Of a DNA stretch of 64,000 nucleotides, positions 2,574 through 64,000 are shown piece after piece. Both the position numbers and the translations under genes were made by a program. Source of the DNA: an uncultured Nitrososphaeraceae archaeon. Lineage in GTDB: Archaea; Thermoproteota; Nitrososphaeria; Nitrososphaerales; Nitrososphaeraceae. The stretch covers positions 205,929 to 269,928 of the forward strand of contig CAWGVG010000060.1 of assembly GCA_963825865.1 (NCBI GenBank), given 5' to 3'. How positions within the stretch are numbered: the first letter of the stretch is position 1; every line of letters begins with the position of its first letter. The notes below the pieces were generated by a model. The model had not been told where the DNA came from. It saw only the letters and a program-made list of their open reading frames with translations, and made no database searches.

Positions 2574-3821
2574 TATAAATTAATATGTTCATAGTGAATT
2601 ATGAAATATAAATGATATTTGGACTACAAAATCTGGAAAAAGGGAAACAGGTTGGTGGAATGTCGGAGCAGATTTGACTCATATTTACCACGTAAAAGAG
2701 CATTTTTCATAAATCAAAAGATGATGATCATCATTATTATTAGCTCCAACAAAGATATTTTTGCGGTACTTTTGTAAACATCTACTGCTTGTAACATTTC
2801 CAATGTTCATATTGTTTTACCCCGCCTCCTCCTGCTTTATCAACTTCTATCATATCTTTACAATATCTGCACCGAATGGGAGCCTTTTCAATACTCTCCT
2901 GTTTTCTGTTCATTTTTATTATATTTATGTACATATGTTTCTAATATTTTTATAACACAACGATTAGCCATCAATATGATTGGTACTTTCTTTAGAAGTC
3001 TATCAATTGAAATAGCGATTAATACTTCGGATTCTTTTTTCTATTGTTGTCACTAAATGCCAAAAACTCAATTCTATCATATCATCTAGGCTACTGTATT
3101 CATATACTGTTGATGTTTGTCTATTGCAGTTTTTGTTTTTATGGTATTTTGTAATTTGTAGTTTTTCTTTCATTTTTTGTTTCAAACCTCAAGTCCTTCA
3201 TGAAAAACAGTAAGATTTTTTTCTCTTCAATCAAAAGAGTAAGACTTTCTCTCGAAGAAATTATCTACGTAAAAAGTTTAATCAGGATTGAAAGTGATTC
3301 TATGCAATAAATTCATCAGCTTGTAAACCATATGTGATGAGTATCACAAGTACAACAAACCTGAAGCAACAACAACTAAAAAACAACAAATAGCAGGTAA
3401 AAAGAATATAAAACAACTATTCATAGCGCAGTGTGAAAATTGTTATTGACAATTTGAACTACTGTATATGATTATTTAATTTGAAAAATGTGTTAGTCAC
3501 TCTATGCTCCTGACTTAAATAGTGCCCTTCCTGAAACAACAATTAGTAAATTAAAGTCTGGAGAATAAAACTAATATTTTATTACGAAGAATAAAAAGAA
3601 TAGAAACATGGGATTAATTGAATTTTTATTCTACCCAACTATGATTATGAAGTGAACAGATGTTCTATATCTCATCAAGTATGAGGGCTAATAGTAGACA
3701 CAGCTATCATTATGAAACGCTTTGCTAATCATAATCTCTTTATATAAATCATAAGGGATTTTTATTAAATTAGAATAGTAAGTTACAAGATTGCTATAGA
3801 TGTAGGAAACCTGATATTGGT

Positions 3822-4103
3822 ATGAGAGATAGAGACAAACTGAATTAATTGCATCTATTCTAAAAGCCACCAATGAAAGAAATGTAAATGCGAGCACAAA
3901 TAATGTATAAGGCATTTTTATCATATACCCGGATGAAACAATATGTATCAATATTAGTTGATGCGGGCTTAATAAAATATCAAGAAGGAAATCGAAGAGC
4001 TTATAGAATAACTGACATTGGAATGAGGTTTTTACATTTACACAATCAGCTTGGTGAATTGCTTACCAATCCTTCCCACTCAAAAACAGTTATTATACAC
4101 TAA
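3822..4103 (+). CDS. Archaeal winged-helix transcriptional regulator (HTH_45/DUF4364-like), frameshifted
   Basis: ELIASILKAT in an upstream frame continues as QIMYKAFLSYTRMKQYVSILVDAGLI...YRITDIGMRFL. Confidence 0.75.
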
Positions 4104-4153
4104 TAGTTATGAAAGAGTAAAAATCAGAGAATCAGCATATTTTGATTCTTGTT

Positions 4154-4550
4154 CTACACCTTGGCAACACACCTAATCTCGATCATGAGCTCCGGGAACG
4201 CAAGACGCTGAATTTGCACGATGGTGCTTGCCACAACTGGGATGCCGAAAAAGACCTCCTGCCTGCATTTGACTGCCGCGGCGAAGGCCGCCTCCATATC
4301 CGTCACGAAGAGTATCTCATCGGCTATGTTATCCATCGTTGCCCCATACTGTGCGAGCACCTTCCGGATGTTGGCATATGCCTGGCGCATCTGTGCCTCC
4401 ATATCTCCGAGACCGATGATACTGCCACCTGTCGTCATGACTCACCTGCCCAGATAGATAGATGGTGTCCCCAACTTTCACCGCCTGGGCGTAACCGTAC
4501 TCTTTCTCCCAAGGCATACCAAAGCTCTTAGTTTCCTTGTCGATTGTCAT
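4154..4550 (-). CDS. ridA: RidA/YjgF/YER057c/UK114 family protein, one frameshift; bacterial-type gene cassette
   Basis: WEKEYGYAQAVKVGDTIYLSGQV (4329..4550) joins DMEAQMRQAYANI...ASTIVQIQRLAFPELMIEIRCVA (4154..4438); visibly GC-richer than flanks; GGGAG Shine-Dalgarno. Confidence 0.9.
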
Positions 4551-4582
4551 AATGTGTCTCCCTTAATGTTAATTGTGAAACT

Positions 4583-4641
4583 TCCTAACGCATAAGCTAA
4601 CCAGCGCGAATAGCGCATCCGAGTTGAGTTCCATGTTAGGC
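4583..4641 (-). mobile_element. attC: Integron attC recombination site (59-base element)
   Basis: Minus strand reads GCCTAAC-ATGGA-ACTCAAC-TCGGATGCGCTATTCGCGCTG-GTTAGCT-TATGC-GTTAGGA: R'' RYYYAAC, 5-nt spacers, L''/L' boxes, central GCGC hairpin, R' GTTAGG; exactly 59 bp. Confidence 0.85.
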
Positions 4642-4680
4642 ATATCCAAAATCCTTGGGTCTAGGTGCAGCACCCATCAT
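4636..4680 (-). pseudogene. 3' stub of the preceding cassette gene (MMGAAPRPKDFGYA*)
   Basis: Its TAA stop lies within the attC R'' box (GCC TAA C), the standard cassette layout. Confidence 0.65.
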
Positions 4681-5066
4681 GTTTTTTTATGGAGTTAGTT
4701 AATAATAAAGTTATTTGACAAACTTTATACTATATCTAATTAATACTGCCACATTTCTATAACTAACTGTTCGTGGTATATATAAACAAATTGAGTAAAC
4801 GTGGTCATATACGTTGGATCAACAAGATAAGAGAAAATTAAAAATAATAATGGCTATAATAGCTGCGAGTGTAATGGCAAGAATATTAATATTTTATATA
4901 ATTTCTAAATAGATAGCCTCCTGTTCGTCTCTAGCAAATAAAGGTATTGACCTCTCCTATATACGACCAGAATGCTTCTCTTAGATCTGTGGTAACCTAT
5001 TGAATTTCTACAATTCATACAATAGAGTTTAAACCTAGTAGTGAGCTCTCAAAGTGTCATCGTTCT

Positions 5067-11122: not shown

Positions 11123-11842
11123 TTGTCTTCATTAAGGAAAAAAAACTTTAGTTTGATAACAACAATATGCACAATTGGCATAATAACGATGTTATTGCAC
11201 GCTTCTAATTTAGCACTATCACCATTAGCAAATGCAGCGGGATCCCGTAATAGTTTAGGGATTGGTAGTATGCTACCAATCCCCGATAACTTAATGACAC
11301 CGCCTAACCAAAATTATCCTCTTCCTTCCAATGCAGTTTCAGGCAGCGGTATTCCAAAAAATATGATAGTAGGACCATCGTGTGTAAGTGGTTGTCAAGC
11401 AATAGTTGGCACAAACAAGGATGACATCATTTACGGAGTGCCGGTAACAGACGCCACGATATATGGTCTAAACGGTAACGACTACATAATAGGAGGAGCA
11501 GGTAATACTAAACTATATGGGGGGGATGACAACGACAACATTAATGCAGGTTTTGGAAATGCCCAAATGTATGGTGGAAAAGGAGATGATGTACTCATCG
11601 GTGGAAGTGGAAATAATATCATTGTCGGTGGACCAGGAAACGATCAGCTATTTGCTGGAACTGGTTCTGATACTTTGATAGGTGGGCCTGGTGCAGACAT
11701 TTTTAATTGTGGCTCACAAACCAGTAGCGGTGGCTCACCATCGTCTGCTGTGATACTGGACTTTAACCCAGGAGAGCAAGATACCAAGTCAAGTAACTGT
11801 AAATATGTGTTTACGCAAGGTAGTTATCCAGCAGTTCCATGA
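11123..11842 (+). CDS. Secreted hemolysin-type (RTX) calcium-binding repeat protein
   Basis: Signal peptide; GGxGxDxL nonapeptide repeats; C-terminal PGADIFNCG...DFNPGEQDTKSSNC. Confidence 0.9.
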   Translation: MSSLRKKNFSLITTICTIGIITMLLHASNLALSPLANAAGSRNSLGIGSMLPIPDNLMTPPNQNYPLPSNAVSGSGIPKNMIVGPSCVSGCQAIVGTNKDDIIYGVPVTDATIYGLNGNDYIIGGAGNTKLYGGDDNDNINAGFGNAQMYGGKGDDVLIGGSGNNIIVGGPGNDQLFAGTGSDTLIGGPGADIFNCGSQTSSGGSPSSAVILDFNPGEQDTKSSNCKYVFTQGSYPAVP

Positions 11843-55871: not shown

Positions 55872-56045
55872 GTGCCTTATAGACCAATCAAACATCTTCC
55901 ATCAATTAGAAAAATTCCAGATGAATTATGGGATGAAATTAAGATAATACTTCCAACTGAGAAAGCAAATAATACCACAGGACGTCCTGTTATTTCATTT
56001 AGAAAAGTTCTGGATGGCATTCTATATATTTTAAGAACTGGGTGC
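55872..56045 (+). mobile_element. IS5-family transposase N-terminal stub (DUF4096)
   Basis: IPDELWDEIKIILP...GRP....RKVLDGILYILRTGC, cut off where QW normally follows. Confidence 0.85.
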
Positions 56046-56106
56046 TTCTCCTCGCGCTGATCGCTTCTTGGCTCTGTTGGAAGCTTGGCTGCGTGGTTCC
56101 GTCATC

Positions 56107-57797
56107 CTAATATGGCGTTCGATTGAAGCGCCGACGGTATGGGGCATAGTATGGACTGCTGATCGCCTCGGTGCGGCTCGCTAGCTCGGCGGTAATGGCG
56201 GCAGAATGAGCCCGTAGTATCTCGTCGTAGAATGCGCCAAGGTCCTCCTTCATTATTGACCTCGACGAGCGATGATCCTTTGAATCATTGTCCAGATAAA
56301 TCATATGTCCCGACGGATAGGTGCGAAAGACAAGGTTTGCCATCACAGGCTCTTGGTTCCTTGGGTTGCCTAGCGGCATATTTTCTAAATCCAACATAGT
56401 TTGGAAGAACGGTGTGACAGCATCAAAATATCCATCTGCACAAAAGACTTTGAGGTATGGGTTTAGCTCCATAGAGGCGGCGAGATCGCCGGCCGTGTAT
56501 AGAGTTCCTGGCCCACCCTTTGGCGCTCCGGTTGGATCGACATGGTCAAAATCCCAGTTCTTGAACGCTAGATCGTTAAGGTCCATGAACGGAGACGTCG
56601 ACGTATACTTAAGCTCTTCATTCAGATACACGTTCCACATGGTGGTATAAACACCACCTACAGCAGTTAGGGTAGGATCATTTCCCCCAGAATTCGGATC
56701 CACTGATCCGGCGATTCCTGCGTCATTTGCAGTGACACGGCCATCGTACGCACCCACTGCTAGGTCCTTGTCCTTCAAAAGTCTGATCAGATAAATCCGT
56801 GCCGTTACCAGGCGGGATCGAGTTTCCAATGCATAAGTACATCTGGTTGGGATCCCGAGAATCTGGCTCAGAAATTGAAGTGTGGCTGGATCGACGTTTG
56901 GATAGGTCGCCTTTGCTGAACTGCTCACACGCGAATTCCTCAACCTGCTTCATAAAACTGGCCAGTTTCTCTAAGGTTGGGGGAGGCGACACTGTCACCT
57001 TGTTGTGAAACAAAGCATCCGCGGCAAAAGTTGGAAGTATACCAACAGAACCGTTTGGTTGAGAGTAGTCGAGAATTGAAGACTGCAGAATTATCCCGTT
57101 CAGATCCACACCATCTTCATGAAGCAACCAAGTCAACACACAGGTTCGCGGTGTCCCATATGATTCTCCGAATAGGAATTTTGGTGAGTTCCAGCGACCG
57201 TACACGGTCAGATAACGCTTTATAAATTGCCTAATCGATTTTGCGTCCTGATCTACGCCCCAGAAATCCTTGTTTTTCCCAGGAGAAGATTGCCGTTGAA
57301 TACCCGGTCCCCACAGGATTAATGAAAACAAGGTCCGTGCGGTCGAGCAGACTGTCGGCATTGTCTTCCAGCGCGTAAGGCGCGGGAGGGGTAAAATTAG
57401 GCATGCTGGTCTTGATGCGTCGTGGCCCAAATGACCCCAGCAATAGAAACACCGAAGATGATCCCGGGCCCCCGTTATAAAAGAAAGTCACAGGACGGCT
57501 CGACGCCTCGACGTCGTTCGCGGTGAATGATACATAAAAAATCTTGGCGGAAGGTCGCGCGCTATATTGATCATATGTCACAAGATGACCAGCGCGCGCG
57601 GTATATGAGATGGTTGCCCCATTGATCGTGATGCTTTGCTGCGTAACTGCAGCGTTCTCAGTCGCATCACTTATTGAATCGTCTGGGCCCGATCCATATA
57701 GTGTAGTATCGAGAAGGGGTTGGTCCGACCCCTTCTCCGCCCGATCCATAACTGATTCATTCATGTTTGGTTCTCCCGAGGTTAGATAACGTGACAT
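56107..57797 (-). CDS. Serine carboxypeptidase S10 family, bacterial-like, two frameshifts
   Basis: RPVTFFYNGGPGSSS, DLVFINPVGTGYS, FLFGESYGTPR, GYFDAVTPF, YPSGHMIY; GC-rich. Confidence 0.9.
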
Positions 57798-58178
57798 AAC
57801 GCCTCACCTGGATTTGGAAATTTTCACCATTTGTTGAATGTTCGTGAGTATATGTTCGATTAAAACATTTATCTGCAGCTTGCCTTGGGGATTTGCTGGC
57901 ATAATGATGAAGACTCATAGGAGCCTGGTCCTACAGTAAGTTTGTGTTACCATGGATTTAAGTGTCAATCTGGTGTTATTAAGGAATTTGGTAAAAGAGA
58001 TATTTATAATCAGCAGTAGGTATGTGCTAAGTAAGTAAGGCTTATCATACCTTGTCCTAGACTGATACAAGTCGTAAGGACTGAGCTAAGCTGAGGTTAT
58101 CATATTAATAGTAACTGAATGACAAACTTACTTCTTTTAAATACGACGGCAAGAAATCAAAATGTGTGGCAACAATAA

Positions 58179-59692: not shown

Positions 59693-59701
59693 TTATCCAC
59701 A
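59693..59701 (+). promoter_or_regulatory. DnaA box TTATCCACA overlapping the palindrome GGATAAAGTTTTATCC
   Basis: Perfect consensus 9-mer about 170 nt upstream of the gcrA-like gene. Confidence 0.4.
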
Positions 59702-59872
59702 TTGCCGGTTCGGGGATGGATGGCGGCGGAGCGGGCCTGACAGTGATCCGTGGCCGCAGTAACGGCCTGAGTTCCTCGCCGCTGGCCGGTGGCAGATCGT
59801 CGAGAAACCGGGACCGCCAAAATGGTGCCTCGAAAGGCGGGCATTCGACGAGTGCTGGGGTGGAGGCTCGCT

Positions 59873-60295
59873 ATGCTCTGGACCGAAGATGAAATCCGCG
59901 AACTGATTGCGTTGTGGCCGACGAACTCGGCGACGCAGATCGCCAGCCAATTGCAGCGCCCGGCCGCCGCGATCACCGGCAAGGTGAAGCGGCTGCGCGA
60001 CGAGGGCCTACTGCCGGCCGAGACGATCAAGCATTACGATTTGGCGCCGGTGCAGACGCGGCCGAAACGCGCTTCTGCGGCATCGAACGATTTGCTCCAC
60101 GGTGGAGCAAATCCGACGAACGCCTTCTCCACGAGGGGGGAAGCGCCCTGCTCGATCCTCGATCTCGACGACAACCGCTGCCACTGGCCGCTCGGCGAGG
60201 TGCACGAGGTCGCTGCGCTGTTCTGCGGCGGGGCCACCGAGCCGGGCCGGCGCTACTGCACCCACCATCTGCGGCTAGCGCGCGGCCGGGCCTAG
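59873..60295 (+). CDS. gcrA: GcrA cell-cycle regulator family protein
   Basis: WTEDEIRELIALW...SATQIASQL....AAITGKVKRL and SILDLDDNRCHWPLGE...FCG...GRRYCTHH; GGAGG RBS at 59862. Confidence 0.9.
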   Translation: MLWTEDEIRELIALWPTNSATQIASQLQRPAAAITGKVKRLRDEGLLPAETIKHYDLAPVQTRPKRASAASNDLLHGGANPTNAFSTRGEAPCSILDLDDNRCHWPLGEVHEVAALFCGGATEPGRRYCTHHLRLARGRA

Positions 60296-60440
60296 ACCGG
60301 CCCAAAGATTGGCAGCGCGAGTCACTGGGGCGTTTATTTTGCCGGGCCGTTAGGACGGCCCTCAGAAAAAACTCACCCGACGGGCTCCCCTGCCCGCCCC
60401 CTCGCGGTCACGATCAGGAAGGCGACGGCGTGCCAGGTTT

Positions 60441-60641
60441 TCATCGGCGCCGCTCCGGGTAAAAGGCGGCGCCGGCCAGCACGCCGACGATGCCGGCCGC
60501 CCCTACTTCCCACAAATCGCGCGGCACGATATTGATCGGCTCGCCGATGGCCTGAGACAGGTTTGCGGCGAAGTTTTCATCGAACATAAAAACGCTTATC
60601 AGGGCCGTGGCTGTGGCCACGTAGAGCAGACGGTTGATCAT
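60441..60641 (-). CDS. Small two-TM membrane protein
   Basis: ATGA overlap with the upstream gene; two hydrophobic segments. Confidence 0.55.
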   Translation of the reverse strand: MINRLLYVATATALISVFMFDENFAANLSQAIGEPINIVPRDLWEVGAAGIVGVLAGAAFYPERRR

Positions 60642-61045
60642 TTCACCGGCTCGTTCTTCGGAGACTTTCCTTCACCGGTGCGCGCAGCCTTTGCGTCCGC
60701 GATAAAGCGCTTGGCGTGCCGCTCCGACAGCGCGATGTAGTAACCAGGCTGCGTGCTACAGGCGTCGAGCAGGCGGCGCCAGTTCTGATCGACCTTGCCC
60801 TCCCCGCCCTTGCGCTTGCCGACCGGTGGCTGTGGGCCGACGTCGGCCTCGATGATCTCGCGCGCCCGCATGAGCAGCTCGCCGAGTGCGGCACGGGGGT
60901 AGAAGCCGTCGTCCTCGTGCTGCCAATCGTTGCGCTTCAGCAAGGCCCGAATCTCGTTCTTCAGCTGGTCGAGCGGGGGTGTGTCGACTGGCGGGGCGTC
61001 AGCAACAGGATGTACGGGCGGCCGTGGGCTGCGCATTTCAGCCAT
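60638..61045 (-). CDS. DUF3102-like phage-associated protein
   Basis: LGELLMRAREII...NWRRLL...LSERHAKRFI resembles the DUF3102 pattern; start overlaps the antitoxin stop. Confidence 0.45.
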   Translation of the reverse strand: MAEMRSPRPPVHPVADAPPVDTPPLDQLKNEIRALLKRNDWQHEDDGFYPRAALGELLMRAREIIEADVGPQPPVGKRKGGEGKVDQNWRRLLDACSTQPGYYIALSERHAKRFIADAKAARTGEGKSPKNEPVK

Positions 61046-61445
61046 GCGGGCGAACTTCGGCGGCAATCCGCTTGCCGCTTTTCGTCTGCGCCTTCGATCC
61101 GATCTTTCTGGCTTTCTTTGATTTGAACGCCAGTTCGAGTCCGAGTGCATCGATGACACGCAGGATGGTGCCGAAGTTTGCGTTGTTCTCCGCCGACAGC
61201 GAGCGATAGAGATTTTCGCGGGACAGGCCGGTGGCTTTCGCCACTTTGGTCATACCGTGTGCGCGGGCGACAGCGCCAAGGGCGTGCTGGATGATGGCAG
61301 CTTCGCCCGGATCGCCGGGATTGCCGGTTGCGATGACTTCGTTAAGGTAGCCGATGATCCTGGCAGGGCTTGTGAGGTAGTCGGCCTCGTCGAATGGCTC
61401 GATTTTGAGATCGGCTTTAGTGAACAGCCTTTTGGTTTTTGGCAT
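61038..61445 (-). CDS. Addiction-module antidote protein (HI1420/HigA-like HTH)
   Basis: PFDEADYL....I.GYLN...ALGAVARAHGMTKVAKATGLSRENLYRSLS...N.NFGTILRVIDALGL. Confidence 0.92.
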   Translation of the reverse strand: MPKTKRLFTKADLKIEPFDEADYLTSPARIIGYLNEVIATGNPGDPGEAAIIQHALGAVARAHGMTKVAKATGLSRENLYRSLSAENNANFGTILRVIDALGLELAFKSKKARKIGSKAQTKSGKRIAAEVRPHG

Positions 61446-61448
61446 TGG

Positions 61449-61493
61449 TTACAACTCCTCGATCATGGTTCGCGCTCTGGCGATGTCGAGTCG
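61449..61493 (-). pseudogene. C-terminal stub of the cognate RelE-like killer toxin (HI1419 type)
   Basis: RLDIARARTMIEEL* ends 3 nt before the antitoxin ATG; upstream toxin body (GGDK motif) absent. Confidence 0.55.
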
Positions 61494-61646
61494 TGGCTCA
61501 CGGCCGCGAGATTCCCCCGACAACTTCAGCCCCGGTCATGCTGGGGCTGCTCTTTGTCCCTCTTTGTCCGCCTATCGACCCACCTCATCGCCGCGCATGC
61601 AATCGAAAGAACGCAGTATTCGGTTAGTGCCGAGGGAGGAAGCGTC

Positions 61647-62114
61647 TCAGTATCGAGCCCGATAGTCGCCGCGCCGCTGGTGCGCGAACAAGTACTGGGG
61701 ATTGATCCCGCAATAGGAAGCAGTACCGCTCGCGGTGGCCATGCATTGGGCGTAGCTGGAGAATTGGCAATTGCCGGGATAGCCCCATGGGCGCCCTTGC
61801 AAGCAGTACGTATCCTGTACGGTCCCAGCAGGCGCGGGCGATATTGATCCGACCTGGCGATAACGCCGACTGTTTCGTCTCACCGACGCCGTCGGACCCG
61901 CATAAAATGGGTTGGGGTTGCACTGCAATCCGCGGCCGGAAGCCGACGCCGCGCATTGGGCCATCGTATAGTAGGTGCAATCCTGGTAGGTACCTCCTCT
62001 CGGGGACACGACGTGCATGCAAACAGGGAAAGCCGGGTCATATGTCTGAGCCCAGGCGTTCCCTGCTGCTAAAACGACAGCTGCCGTCAAAATCGTCAAA
62101 GCCAAAGTGCGCAT
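61647..62114 (-). CDS. DUF3551 tandem-domain secreted Cys-rich protein (Bradyrhizobiaceae type)
   Basis: AQTYDPAFPVCM..DCTYYTMAQCAASASGRGLQCNPNPF and YCLQGRPWGYPGNCQFSSYAQCMATASGT..YCGINP. Confidence 0.88.
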   Translation of the reverse strand: MRTLALTILTAAVVLAAGNAWAQTYDPAFPVCMHVVSPRGGTYQDCTYYTMAQCAASASGRGLQCNPNPFYAGPTASVRRNSRRYRQVGSISPAPAGTVQDTYCLQGRPWGYPGNCQFSSYAQCMATASGTASYCGINPQYLFAHQRRGDYRARY

Positions 62115-62313
62115 TGGATCGTTCTCGAAGTCCGCACAACACCAATGCACCGCAGGCAATACTGTTTCAAGTCGGAATAGGTTCATGCGCGCGCATCCGG
62201 CGTTCAGCCGGGTGCAGGATCAGTTCGGCTGAGCCGTAGAGCACCGGTCGCCATTGATCGGCGAGCCAGTCAGTTTACGAGTAGCAAATCCAATCGATCC
62301 GGGGAGTGGCACG

Positions 62314-62871
62314 ATGAAAACAGAACAGCTGAAGATGTTGGCTGGCGAGCTTTACGATCCAATGGATCCCGAGCTAGTTGCGGCGCGAACACATGCGCGA
62401 GACCTATGTCAGGCGCTGAACGCAACGCAAGAAGTGGAACACGAGAAACGGCGGCAAATCCTGCACGAGCTGTTCGGCGCCGGTGGCGACACCGTGTGGA
62501 TGCAGCCGCCCTTCTTCTGCGACTATGGCTCTAACATCAAGCTCGGAGAGCGGGTTTTCTTCAACTTCAACTGCGTCGTGCTCGACGTTTGTCCAGTGCA
62601 GATCGGCAGCTTCACCCTCTTTGGCCCGGCGGTGCAGGTCTACACTCCGATGCATCCATTCAACGCCGAGCAGCGCCGTCGAGAAGAGTTCGGTAGACCG
62701 GTAGTCATCGGGTCGGACGTTTGGGTGGGCGGCGGAGCGATCATTTTGCCGGGCGTGCGTATTGGGAACCGAGCGGTGATTGGGGCTGGAAGCGTGGTGA
62801 CACGTGATATTCCAGAGCGCGTGTTTGCCGCAGGAAACCCGTGCCGCGTAGTCCGCGAAATCACAGAATAA
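62314..62871 (+). CDS. maa: Maltose/galactoside O-acetyltransferase
   Basis: KMLAGELYDP.DPEL, PPFFCDYGSNI, hexapeptide repeats, GAGSVVTRDIP, AGNPCRVVR. Confidence 0.93.
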   Translation: MKTEQLKMLAGELYDPMDPELVAARTHARDLCQALNATQEVEHEKRRQILHELFGAGGDTVWMQPPFFCDYGSNIKLGERVFFNFNCVVLDVCPVQIGSFTLFGPAVQVYTPMHPFNAEQRRREEFGRPVVIGSDVWVGGGAIILPGVRIGNRAVIGAGSVVTRDIPERVFAAGNPCRVVREITE

Positions 62872-62979
62872 ACGTTATCGCCCTTGAGGCGCTGTGGTAT
62901 AATACCCGGCGGGTCTCTGCCCCTTCACCCGCCGGGCTTAGTTGAAAGCGAACGAGACATCGGGTTCAGAAATCAGAAC

Positions 62980-63966
62980 TCAGGTCGGGATCGGAATGAG
63001 TGTCATCCCTTCTGGATAGTAGCGGAAACCATCACCCTGCTTTGCCACATGACCGATCCCTGGCCACGCGAAGTGATAGGCCAGCAGGAGTGTCTTATTC
63101 TCCGCCAGCGTGTTCAGTATTCGCACCCGACTTTTCGCCGACTGCTTGGGATCGGTATCGTACATGAACTCGGTCAGCGGCTTCTCCAGCAGTATGACCG
63201 GATGATGAGCAAGGTCGCCGACATAGCAAAGTGACTCCTTGCCGGAATTGATCATGAATACCGTGTGCCCGACCGTGTGGCCCGGCGCTAAGATCGCATG
63301 AACGCCAGGCAGGATCTCTTCGCCATCTTTGATGAAATGCATTCGGTCCTTATTCGGCGAGAGGTTTTTGCGCGCCGTCTCGAGAAAGACTTTGAATTCG
63401 GACGGTACTTTGGTTTCGTCAGTCCAGAAATCGTAGTCAGCCTGGGTGATGAAGTACTCGGCATTCGGGAAGTGACGCGATCCATCGTCGGCCATGCAAC
63501 CGCCACAGTGGTCGATGTGCGCGTGCGTCATCACGACCGCATCGATGTCCTTCGGATCGAACCCTGCGGTCTTGAGGCTGCTCATGAGCTTGCCGGTTGT
63601 CGGGCCGAACAGCGTTAGGCTTCCCATCCCAGTGTCGAAGAGTATGAGTTTGTCACCCGTGTTGACCACCAATGCATTCTGCTCAAGCACCGCGTTTGAG
63701 AGGGGCAGGAAGTTGTCGGTGAGCTGCCTGTCCATCTCCGCCGGAGTGAGGCCGAGGAAGTTCTTGTGCGGGTCGCCGAGCGGAAGCGGCCCATCGGAAA
63801 CTATCGTCGCTTGAAAGGCGCCTATGTTAAAGCGATAGAATGGCGGTGCCTGGCTATCGAGTTTGGGCGCCTTAGCGAAGCTTGGGTTTATGGACGCGAG
63901 CGTCCCGGCTGCGGAGGCTCCGATCAACAAGTTCCGACGGGATAGCATCGTAGTGCTTTTTGTCAT
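62980..63966 (-). CDS. Tat-exported MBL-fold metallo-hydrolase (lactonase/phosphotriesterase-like)
   Basis: SRRNLL Tat motif; THAHIDHCGG, PGHTVGH, GDL, YHFAWPG. Confidence 0.92.
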   Translation of the reverse strand: MTKSTTMLSRRNLLIGASAAGTLASINPSFAKAPKLDSQAPPFYRFNIGAFQATIVSDGPLPLGDPHKNFLGLTPAEMDRQLTDNFLPLSNAVLEQNALVVNTGDKLILFDTGMGSLTLFGPTTGKLMSSLKTAGFDPKDIDAVVMTHAHIDHCGGCMADDGSRHFPNAEYFITQADYDFWTDETKVPSEFKVFLETARKNLSPNKDRMHFIKDGEEILPGVHAILAPGHTVGHTVFMINSGKESLCYVGDLAHHPVILLEKPLTEFMYDTDPKQSAKSRVRILNTLAENKTLLLAYHFAWPGIGHVAKQGDGFRYYPEGMTLIPIPT

Positions 63967-64000
63967 TTGTTACTCCCTTCTTTGGCGCTTATGCGCCGCG

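Follow-up and report, generated by a model that had tools for sequence, protein, structure and literature searches.

We analyzed a stretch of 64,000 nucleotides (64 kb; hereafter the window) from an uncultured Nitrososphaeraceae archaeon (assembly GCA_963825865.1, contig CAWGVG010000060.1), in which a small block at positions 4154–4680 holds a Rid-family gene, ridA, preceded by a 59-nt site resembling attC, the recombination site of integron cassettes. We consider it likely that this block derives from a bacterial integron cassette array, as a slice that has been domesticated. This slice would consist of about 40 nt of a cassette tail, the attC of that cassette, and the next cassette, that is, a 5' untranslated region (UTR) and the Rid gene without an attC of its own. 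An ancestor within the Nitrososphaeraceae would have captured it once, without an integron integrase, and it would later have been inherited vertically and exchanged among genera, as a module of about 570 bp with an archaeal TATA-like promoter acquired upstream. In the archaea the attC would have no role and be decaying, while ridA would be kept under purifying selection and probably be translated from its Shine-Dalgarno sequence. The genome studied here would carry the least ameliorated copy, with a GC content at third codon positions (GC3) of 0.67, and the best-preserved attC.

Results

Layout of the block

On the minus strand, the block reads as a 14-codon open reading frame (ORF), the 59-nt site, 32 nt containing GGGAG, and the Rid-family gene, which runs to a TAG stop codon at 4154. 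An original prediction, made from the letters alone, had described the site as a 59-bp attC, and all the boxes and 5-nt spacers that it named are present on this strand between 4641 and 4583: R'' GCCTAAC (4641–4635), the spacer ATGGA, L'' ACTCAAC (4629–4623), 21 central nucleotides, L' GTTAGCT (4601–4595), the spacer TATGC, and R' GTTAGGA (4589–4583). Its other observations on the layout were accurate as well. The stub ORF (4636–4680), which marks the limit of the GC-rich block on the left, ends with a TAA that lies inside R''; the ATG of ridA is located at 4550, 32 nt past the end of R' at 4583; and GTAGAAC coincides with the ridA stop codon. The 5' UTR of the ridA cassette occupies 4551–4582, with the Shine-Dalgarno-like GGGAG at 4562–4558, and the gene itself spans 4154–4550. 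The block was also found to be GC-richer than its surroundings, as had been claimed: GC content was 0.475–0.56 in 200-nt windows starting at 4101–4301 and 0.42–0.46 in those starting at 4401 and 4501, against 0.25–0.35 (about 0.30) in the flanks. The stub ORF may be the tail of a preceding cassette; its reading frame is open in close relatives only.

Covariance models match the site

In order to score the site, covariance models were made in-house from genuine attCs of plasmid integrons, which had been located with a Binatia integrase fragment as the query. Eleven attCs were delineated in six annotated arrays; what was dropped comprised one truncated site, duplicates, and a site whose ends were unclear. 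Alignment of six short attCs (A4) gave model R1; the R and L boxes emerged from this alignment with RNAalifold, and 7 of its 17 pairs showed covariation. All 16 matches of R1 lay inside cassette arrays, and these 16 matches served to build model R2; R3 is a sequence-only model. Among attCs on which R1 had not been trained, GES-7 scored 62 bits, OXA-1 43, dfrA17 22, arr-3 18.5, and others 16 and 15, and one attC, that of dfrA37, was missed. Four further untrained attC matches, at 18–28 bits, came from a plasmid of the cyanobacterium Kovacikia, on which an integron integrase is annotated. The best score in control DNA, about 345 kb in total searched with filters off, was 17 bits; bacterial ridA loci used as controls stayed at or below 17.0 bits over 96.5 kb and 12.2 bits over 92 kb, other archaeal loci at or below 11.8 bits over 92 kb, and the rest of the window at or below 11.0 bits.

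The site in the window scored 28.9 bits with R1 (E = 8.6e-5) and 30.1 bits with R2 over the full model, 1–60 (E = 6.3e-5), both E-values being for the 64-kb window, in which the next best match reached 10.6 to 11 bits with the two models. An attC model match, one of the checks proposed with the original prediction, was therefore obtained with these home-made models, against control scores of at most 17 bits. In the alignment of the site to R2, 15 of the 17 model pairs form, and a bulge is present at the bulge position of the model. The sequence-only model R3 found no match at the site, and base pairing therefore carries the score. R'' fits the consensus RYYYAAC.

Several observations weigh against identification as an attC, and most of them would suit a different reading, in which the site is a chance palindrome in the native, family-wide leader of ridA and the gene arrived by ordinary transfer independent of integrons. 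R' (GTTAGGA) departs from GTTRRRY only at its last base, and six R''/R' bases pair. For the bottom strand, a folding energy of −7.5 kcal/mol was obtained (z = −0.78); 41 of 200 shuffled sequences fold as well, and a second shuffling test gave z = −0.11. The corresponding energies are −14 to −17.5 kcal/mol for genuine attCs of 57–60 nt and −14 to −36 kcal/mol for all 11, and the site lacks the stable bottom-strand hairpin of an attC. No covariation was found over eight leaders, where 73.8% of cells were paired vs. a shuffle mean of 75.4%, and the pairs are broken in relatives. R-box pairs numbered 8, vs. 7.5 ± 3.9 in Markov simulations, which is the chance level, and a strict R-box pair stood next to ridA in none of 80 loci. 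The leader diverges at the rate of ridA third codon positions, as neutral DNA would. Orthologous sites of relatives scored 28.7, 23.1, 21.4, 17.3, 12.8, and 11.4 bits, with no score at the remaining loci; lying at the same position, they are not independent evidence. Finally, the home-made models rest on 6 and 16 attCs, most of which come from class 1 integrons, and the E-values that they give are rough.

The fold, the lack of covariation, the R-box counts, the neutral divergence of the leader, and its lack of conserved RNA structure had first pointed to a chance palindrome, and the covariance models reversed that; they supersede the crude R-box scans with their chance-level outcome. A score of 30 bits stands against at most 17 bits in about 345 kb of control DNA. 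Moreover, the site occupies the place expected of the preceding attC, beside a gene that adjoins attC matches in bacteria, and the cassette boundary is common to bacterial loci, as described below. On this balance we regard a chance palindrome as unlikely. With its weak fold, its lack of covariation, and the falling scores, the probably integron-derived site behaves in the archaea like a relic in decay, and it would have no role there. The original interpretation is supported in part: its core stands, with corrections on the age of the capture, the state of the site, the promoter, and the Shine-Dalgarno sequence.

Two other accounts of the leader were tried. A structured leader RNA was rejected on 12 leaders (RNAalifold −0.68, z = 0.10). 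A small upstream ORF at 4673–4569 found no support: it is open in several relatives and shows in-frame indels, but it has no consistent start and evolves at a neutral rate. A search of Rfam gave no matches at gathering thresholds and, by E-value, weak chance matches only.

No integrase and no second attC found

No second attC was found in the 64-kb window with R2 and filters off, and no match follows the ridA stop codon there, which leaves the ORF without an attC of its own; with a single match in the window, the block also falls short of the two or more attCs per 4 kb asked of clusters of attC sites lacking integron integrases (CALIN). The best match in the genome to the integron integrase profile TIGR02249 reached 38.2 bits, against a cut-off of 265, in an assembly that is 81.8% complete. 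The original prediction had likewise seen neither intI nor a second attC. Scans of the whole genome and of the family with the models scored part of the candidates and missed the window's own site; they are uninformative on absence, and one match, in an unpublished genome, was set aside.

These results bear on an alternative in which the attC still works, as part of an archaeal integron or attC cluster that has its integrase or its neighboring attCs outside the assembly. Such a reading could draw on the 81.8% completeness, on the 15 of 17 model pairs that form, and on the existence of archaeal integrons, Thermoproteota included (Ghaly et al., 2022, PMC9668308). We nevertheless consider it very improbable, given the score of 38 vs. 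265 bits for the integrase, the single attC in the window, the unconserved structure, and the lack of an attC downstream of ridA. Separately, a weak 37-nt attC-like match was seen at G000:C13:51044–51080 (L169; 20.6 bits, E about 1 genome-wide).

Bacterial homologs and a shared cassette boundary

Bacterial homologs of the gene occur in more than 10 phyla, with 53–82% amino-acid identity, and the best nucleotide identity to the window ridA, 81%, was found to Nitrospiraceae and Nitrospira moscoviensis. Two bacterial loci place the gene beside attC matches. At locus L071, an attC of 45.6 bits lies about 114 nt after ridA, and this score fell to 20.3 bits with the sequence-only model; the genome in question (G143) has cassette arrays, with 10 attC matches of 26–46 bits, two or more of them on one contig. 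At locus L058 (Hassallia), matches flank ridA on both sides, with 19.8 and 27.0 bits. Against the derivation from an array, the other 32 of the 34 bacterial loci have no attC match next to ridA. On plasmids, the leader was unmatched, and RidA protein matches remained below 50% identity.

A second link to bacteria is the boundary itself. The archaeal sequence GTTAGGAAGTTTCACAATTAAC aligns with GTTAGGCTGTTTCACATGTATAAC of bacterial locus L057 and with ATTAGGCGGTCTCACAT of L052, in each case at the same distance to the start codon, and upstream of the GTT the archaeal and bacterial sequences are unrelated. The R' core and the 5' UTR are homologous between archaeal and bacterial ridA loci (alignment A6). 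A boundary at GTT is expected under the cassette model, which assigns all sequence past G|TT to the ridA cassette and all sequence before it to the neighbor.

A related observation was made among the bacteria. Locus L072, in Binatia genome G140, carries a ridA nearly identical to that of L071 and shares about 70 nt downstream of it, but lacks the attC, and it may represent a further instance, on the bacterial side, of a slice of cassette DNA that moved without its attC. Genome G140 also has an integron-integrase-like gene in two pieces (G140:C4:148772–151187; L152, L157), scoring 233 and 124 bits and about 1.65 kb apart, and no cassette array was found beside it.

Spread and composition in the Nitrososphaeraceae

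The original prediction could be read as a capture private to this genome, which our survey contradicts: ridA is present in 31 of 120 other genomes of the family (29 of 118 without the unpublished G092 and G114), and a leader of about 170 nt with the site is common to a subset of loci. By genus, the gene was found in 7/7 genomes of g17, 4/5 of g14, 3/4 of g18, 6/13 of g13, 5/14 of g9, 3/10 of g12, 0/14 of g2, and 0/11 of g16. Such a distribution indicates that the capture event is old. A protein search with the intact orthologue of genome G016 as the query returned 2581 relatives, of which the 120 best show 88% identity or more to this query, and the named ones among these 120 are Nitrososphaeraceae. 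All archaeal copies found belong to this family or to close relatives (Nitrososphaerales and unplaced Thermoproteota metagenome-assembled genomes, MAGs). Grouping of RidA with thaumarchaeal homologs had been named beforehand as a refutation, and formally this is the grouping obtained.

A DNA tree of 27 family copies and the window, which left out the two unpublished genomes as well as partial and second copies, was largely congruent with genera (11 label changes, vs. a minimum of 9 and a shuffled mean of 19), with exceptions. Synteny is seen only inside sub-clades of single genera. In comparisons across genera, homology stops within a few bases of the stop codon on one side and, on the other, at a point 5 to about 220 nt before the start codon; for the window and its relatives it ends near 4722. 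In a second type of archaeal locus, an AT-rich stretch replaces everything upstream of about −23. A search for an empty site gave no result, the flanks of the block matching no relative.

The composition of the gene sets it apart from its archaeal surroundings. In all 47 archaeal loci examined, the GC content of ridA exceeded that of the flanks, by 0.04 to 0.20, whereas in 33 bacterial loci the difference ranged from −0.08 to +0.05. The GC3 of the window ridA is the highest among the archaeal copies, against a host median of 0.30 over 20 long ORFs of the window; the two other Rid genes of the genome, distantly related to this one, have GC3 values of 0.21 and 0.24.

These data speak to the direction of transfer. 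Conversely to our proposal, an archaeal ridA could have been recruited into bacterial integrons, with the archaeal upstream site as the original; a passage in Ghaly et al. (2022, PMC9668308) counts in favor of such a reverse transfer, and so does the lack of a root. The protein tree has no root and little resolution and gives no direction, which weighs against our reading, and the DNA tree gives no direction of transfer either. However, the archaeal copies are GC-rich outliers in 47 of 47 loci while bacterial copies match their flanks, and the bacterial copies are spread over more than 10 phyla at 53–82% identity, as opposed to the archaeal copies found, which belong to the Nitrososphaeraceae or close relatives. 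We hold reverse transfer to be quite improbable, and a movement from bacteria to archaea would best suit these patterns.

Assembly support, reading frame, and promoter

An abrupt jump in GC content at the block, together with genes of alphaproteobacterial type and 56–66% GC at the far end of the contig, could suggest an assembly chimera or bacterial contamination. The junctions on either side of the block are crossed by contigs of three runs from three studies (X2, X3, and X6), and the metagenome contig L107 spans 3939–4988 at 97.7% identity; a further run, X1, covered 4814–5000 only. The stretch or part of it is present in 20 runs from 9 studies. Since independent contigs cross the junctions (the original prediction had asked for spanning reads), the block is not a chimera; this explanation is refuted for 3800–5000, and we give it a negligible probability.

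The same contigs clarify the reading frame. In the window, ridA reads as two ORFs (4550–4329 and 4438–4154), a break overlooked in the original prediction. It is caused by an extra C (G on the coding strand) at 4428, which is missing from the contigs of all three covering runs, from L107, and from all six relatives compared; in L107 and in the contigs of the three runs, ridA is intact. The frameshift is probably an assembly indel, and the gene is probably intact in nature. Single-base indels at 3836 and 3892 are likewise agreed on by the three covering runs, and from this agreement it follows that the window probably carries assembly indels. A further single- or two-base indel relative to independent contigs was noticed at 4112, and an HTH_45 ORF at 3888–4103 begins at profile position 23, probably truncated by nearby indels.

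Upstream of the stub, a TATA-like box, CTTTATTATT (4701–4710, minus strand), is the best-conserved motif of the leader, occurring in 13 of 17 aligned rows, and would be the archaeal promoter of the module. The description of ridA as promoterless is doubtful because of this conserved box. Equally, the Shine-Dalgarno sequence had been called bacterial, and such a sequence is not specific to bacteria; AAGGRG is retained in most aligned leaders.

The Rid-family protein

Both halves of the split ORF match PF01042 (Rid, or YjgF/YER057c/UK114, family) with its N- and C-terminal parts, the C-terminal half at 52.7 bits vs. a gathering score of 27.3. Among solved structures, the best match was 5v4f (E = 1.9e-13). 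The intact G016 orthologue scored 56 bits with TIGR00004, the RidA subfamily, whose cut-off is 106.25 bits. Canonical RidA needs an Arg that, in the HMMER alignment to 1x25, lies opposite a Ser of this protein. Because of the Ser at this position, an imine deaminase activity of the protein, as judged from its sequence, is uncertain.

Host and other features of the window

The host genome encodes an archaeal amoA (383 bits), which identifies it as an ammonia-oxidizing archaeon (AOA). Away from the block, the contig end at 59700–64000 has a GC content of 0.56–0.66 and carries a GcrA cell-cycle regulator and DUF3551, both alphaproteobacterial types; this is a chimera at the contig end or else a large island of foreign DNA. 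A second island at 56000–58000 (GC 0.47–0.50) contains overlapping ORFs, one of which matches a Peptidase_S10 fragment only. The region of a UPF0147 gene (2127–2543) recurs at 99% identity on contig C14 of this genome, and proteins with RTX calcium-binding repeats are encoded at 11123–11842 and 15346–15861 in this archaeal chromosome.

Discussion

Our results describe a site with attC likeness in front of a GC-rich gene that is spread through an archaeal family, has bacterial homologs beside attC matches, and shares a cassette boundary with bacterial loci. Transfer from bacteria to archaea, in a single capture by illegitimate recombination and with a promoter gained afterwards, would account for these features. 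If so, the block looks like the concrete mark that an integron cassette array left when it supplied a gene to an archaeal lineage, one where no integron was found; the recombination site can still be recognized, and the gene is retained across many genera of soil ammonia oxidizers. Its close bacterial relatives include Nitrospira, from the same habitat. The case would extend integron-linked transfer across domains to the bacteria-to-archaea direction, and it would illustrate a domesticated capture, marked by an archaeal promoter, a decaying attC, and a GC content drifting to that of the host. One might go further and suppose that the promoter–attC–ridA module of about 570 bp is still mobile among soil nitrifiers, its attC being cuttable by a foreign integrase; we find this distinctly unlikely. 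Were it true, AOA chromosomes would not only take up integron cassettes of bacterial origin but also return them.

Integrases together with attC clusters were reported in 75 archaeal MAGs from nine phyla by a survey that counted two or more attCs within 4 kb and dropped singletons (Ghaly et al., 2022, Sci Adv, PMC9668308). The main text of that paper, to which this statement is limited, contains neither "Thaumarchaeota" nor "Nitrososphaer". A literature search on Nitrososphaera, RidA, and horizontal gene transfer returned nothing related, as judged by title. A CALIN, as defined in IntegronFinder 2.0 (PMC9024848), likewise requires at least two attCs.

In comparison with known systems, the protein resembles the Rid (YjgF/YER057c/UK114) family in its PF01042 fold, with 5v4f as the nearest structure, and differs from canonical RidA in its score below the TIGR00004 cut-off and in the Ser opposite the Arg in 1x25. 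The site is similar to the short attCs of mobile integrons (aadA, catB3, and dfrB3 type, 57–60 nt) in its length of 59 nt, in running from GCCTAAC to GCGTTAGG, in its 5-nt spacers, in the bulged base in L'', and in the distance of 32 nt between R' and the start codon; unlike them, it has a weaker stem (−7.5 vs. −14 to −17.5 kcal/mol). Like CALIN and single attC sites, the block combines an attC-like site with a cassette-type gene in a genome where no integron integrase was found, whereas, in contrast to CALIN (PMC9024848), there is one site here, and it is decaying, archaeal, and shared by a family. Finally, as with archaeal integrons (PMC9668308), parts of an integron are found in archaeal genomes and cassettes would have moved across domains; unlike those, what we describe here is likely a captured and domesticated slice rather than an integron.
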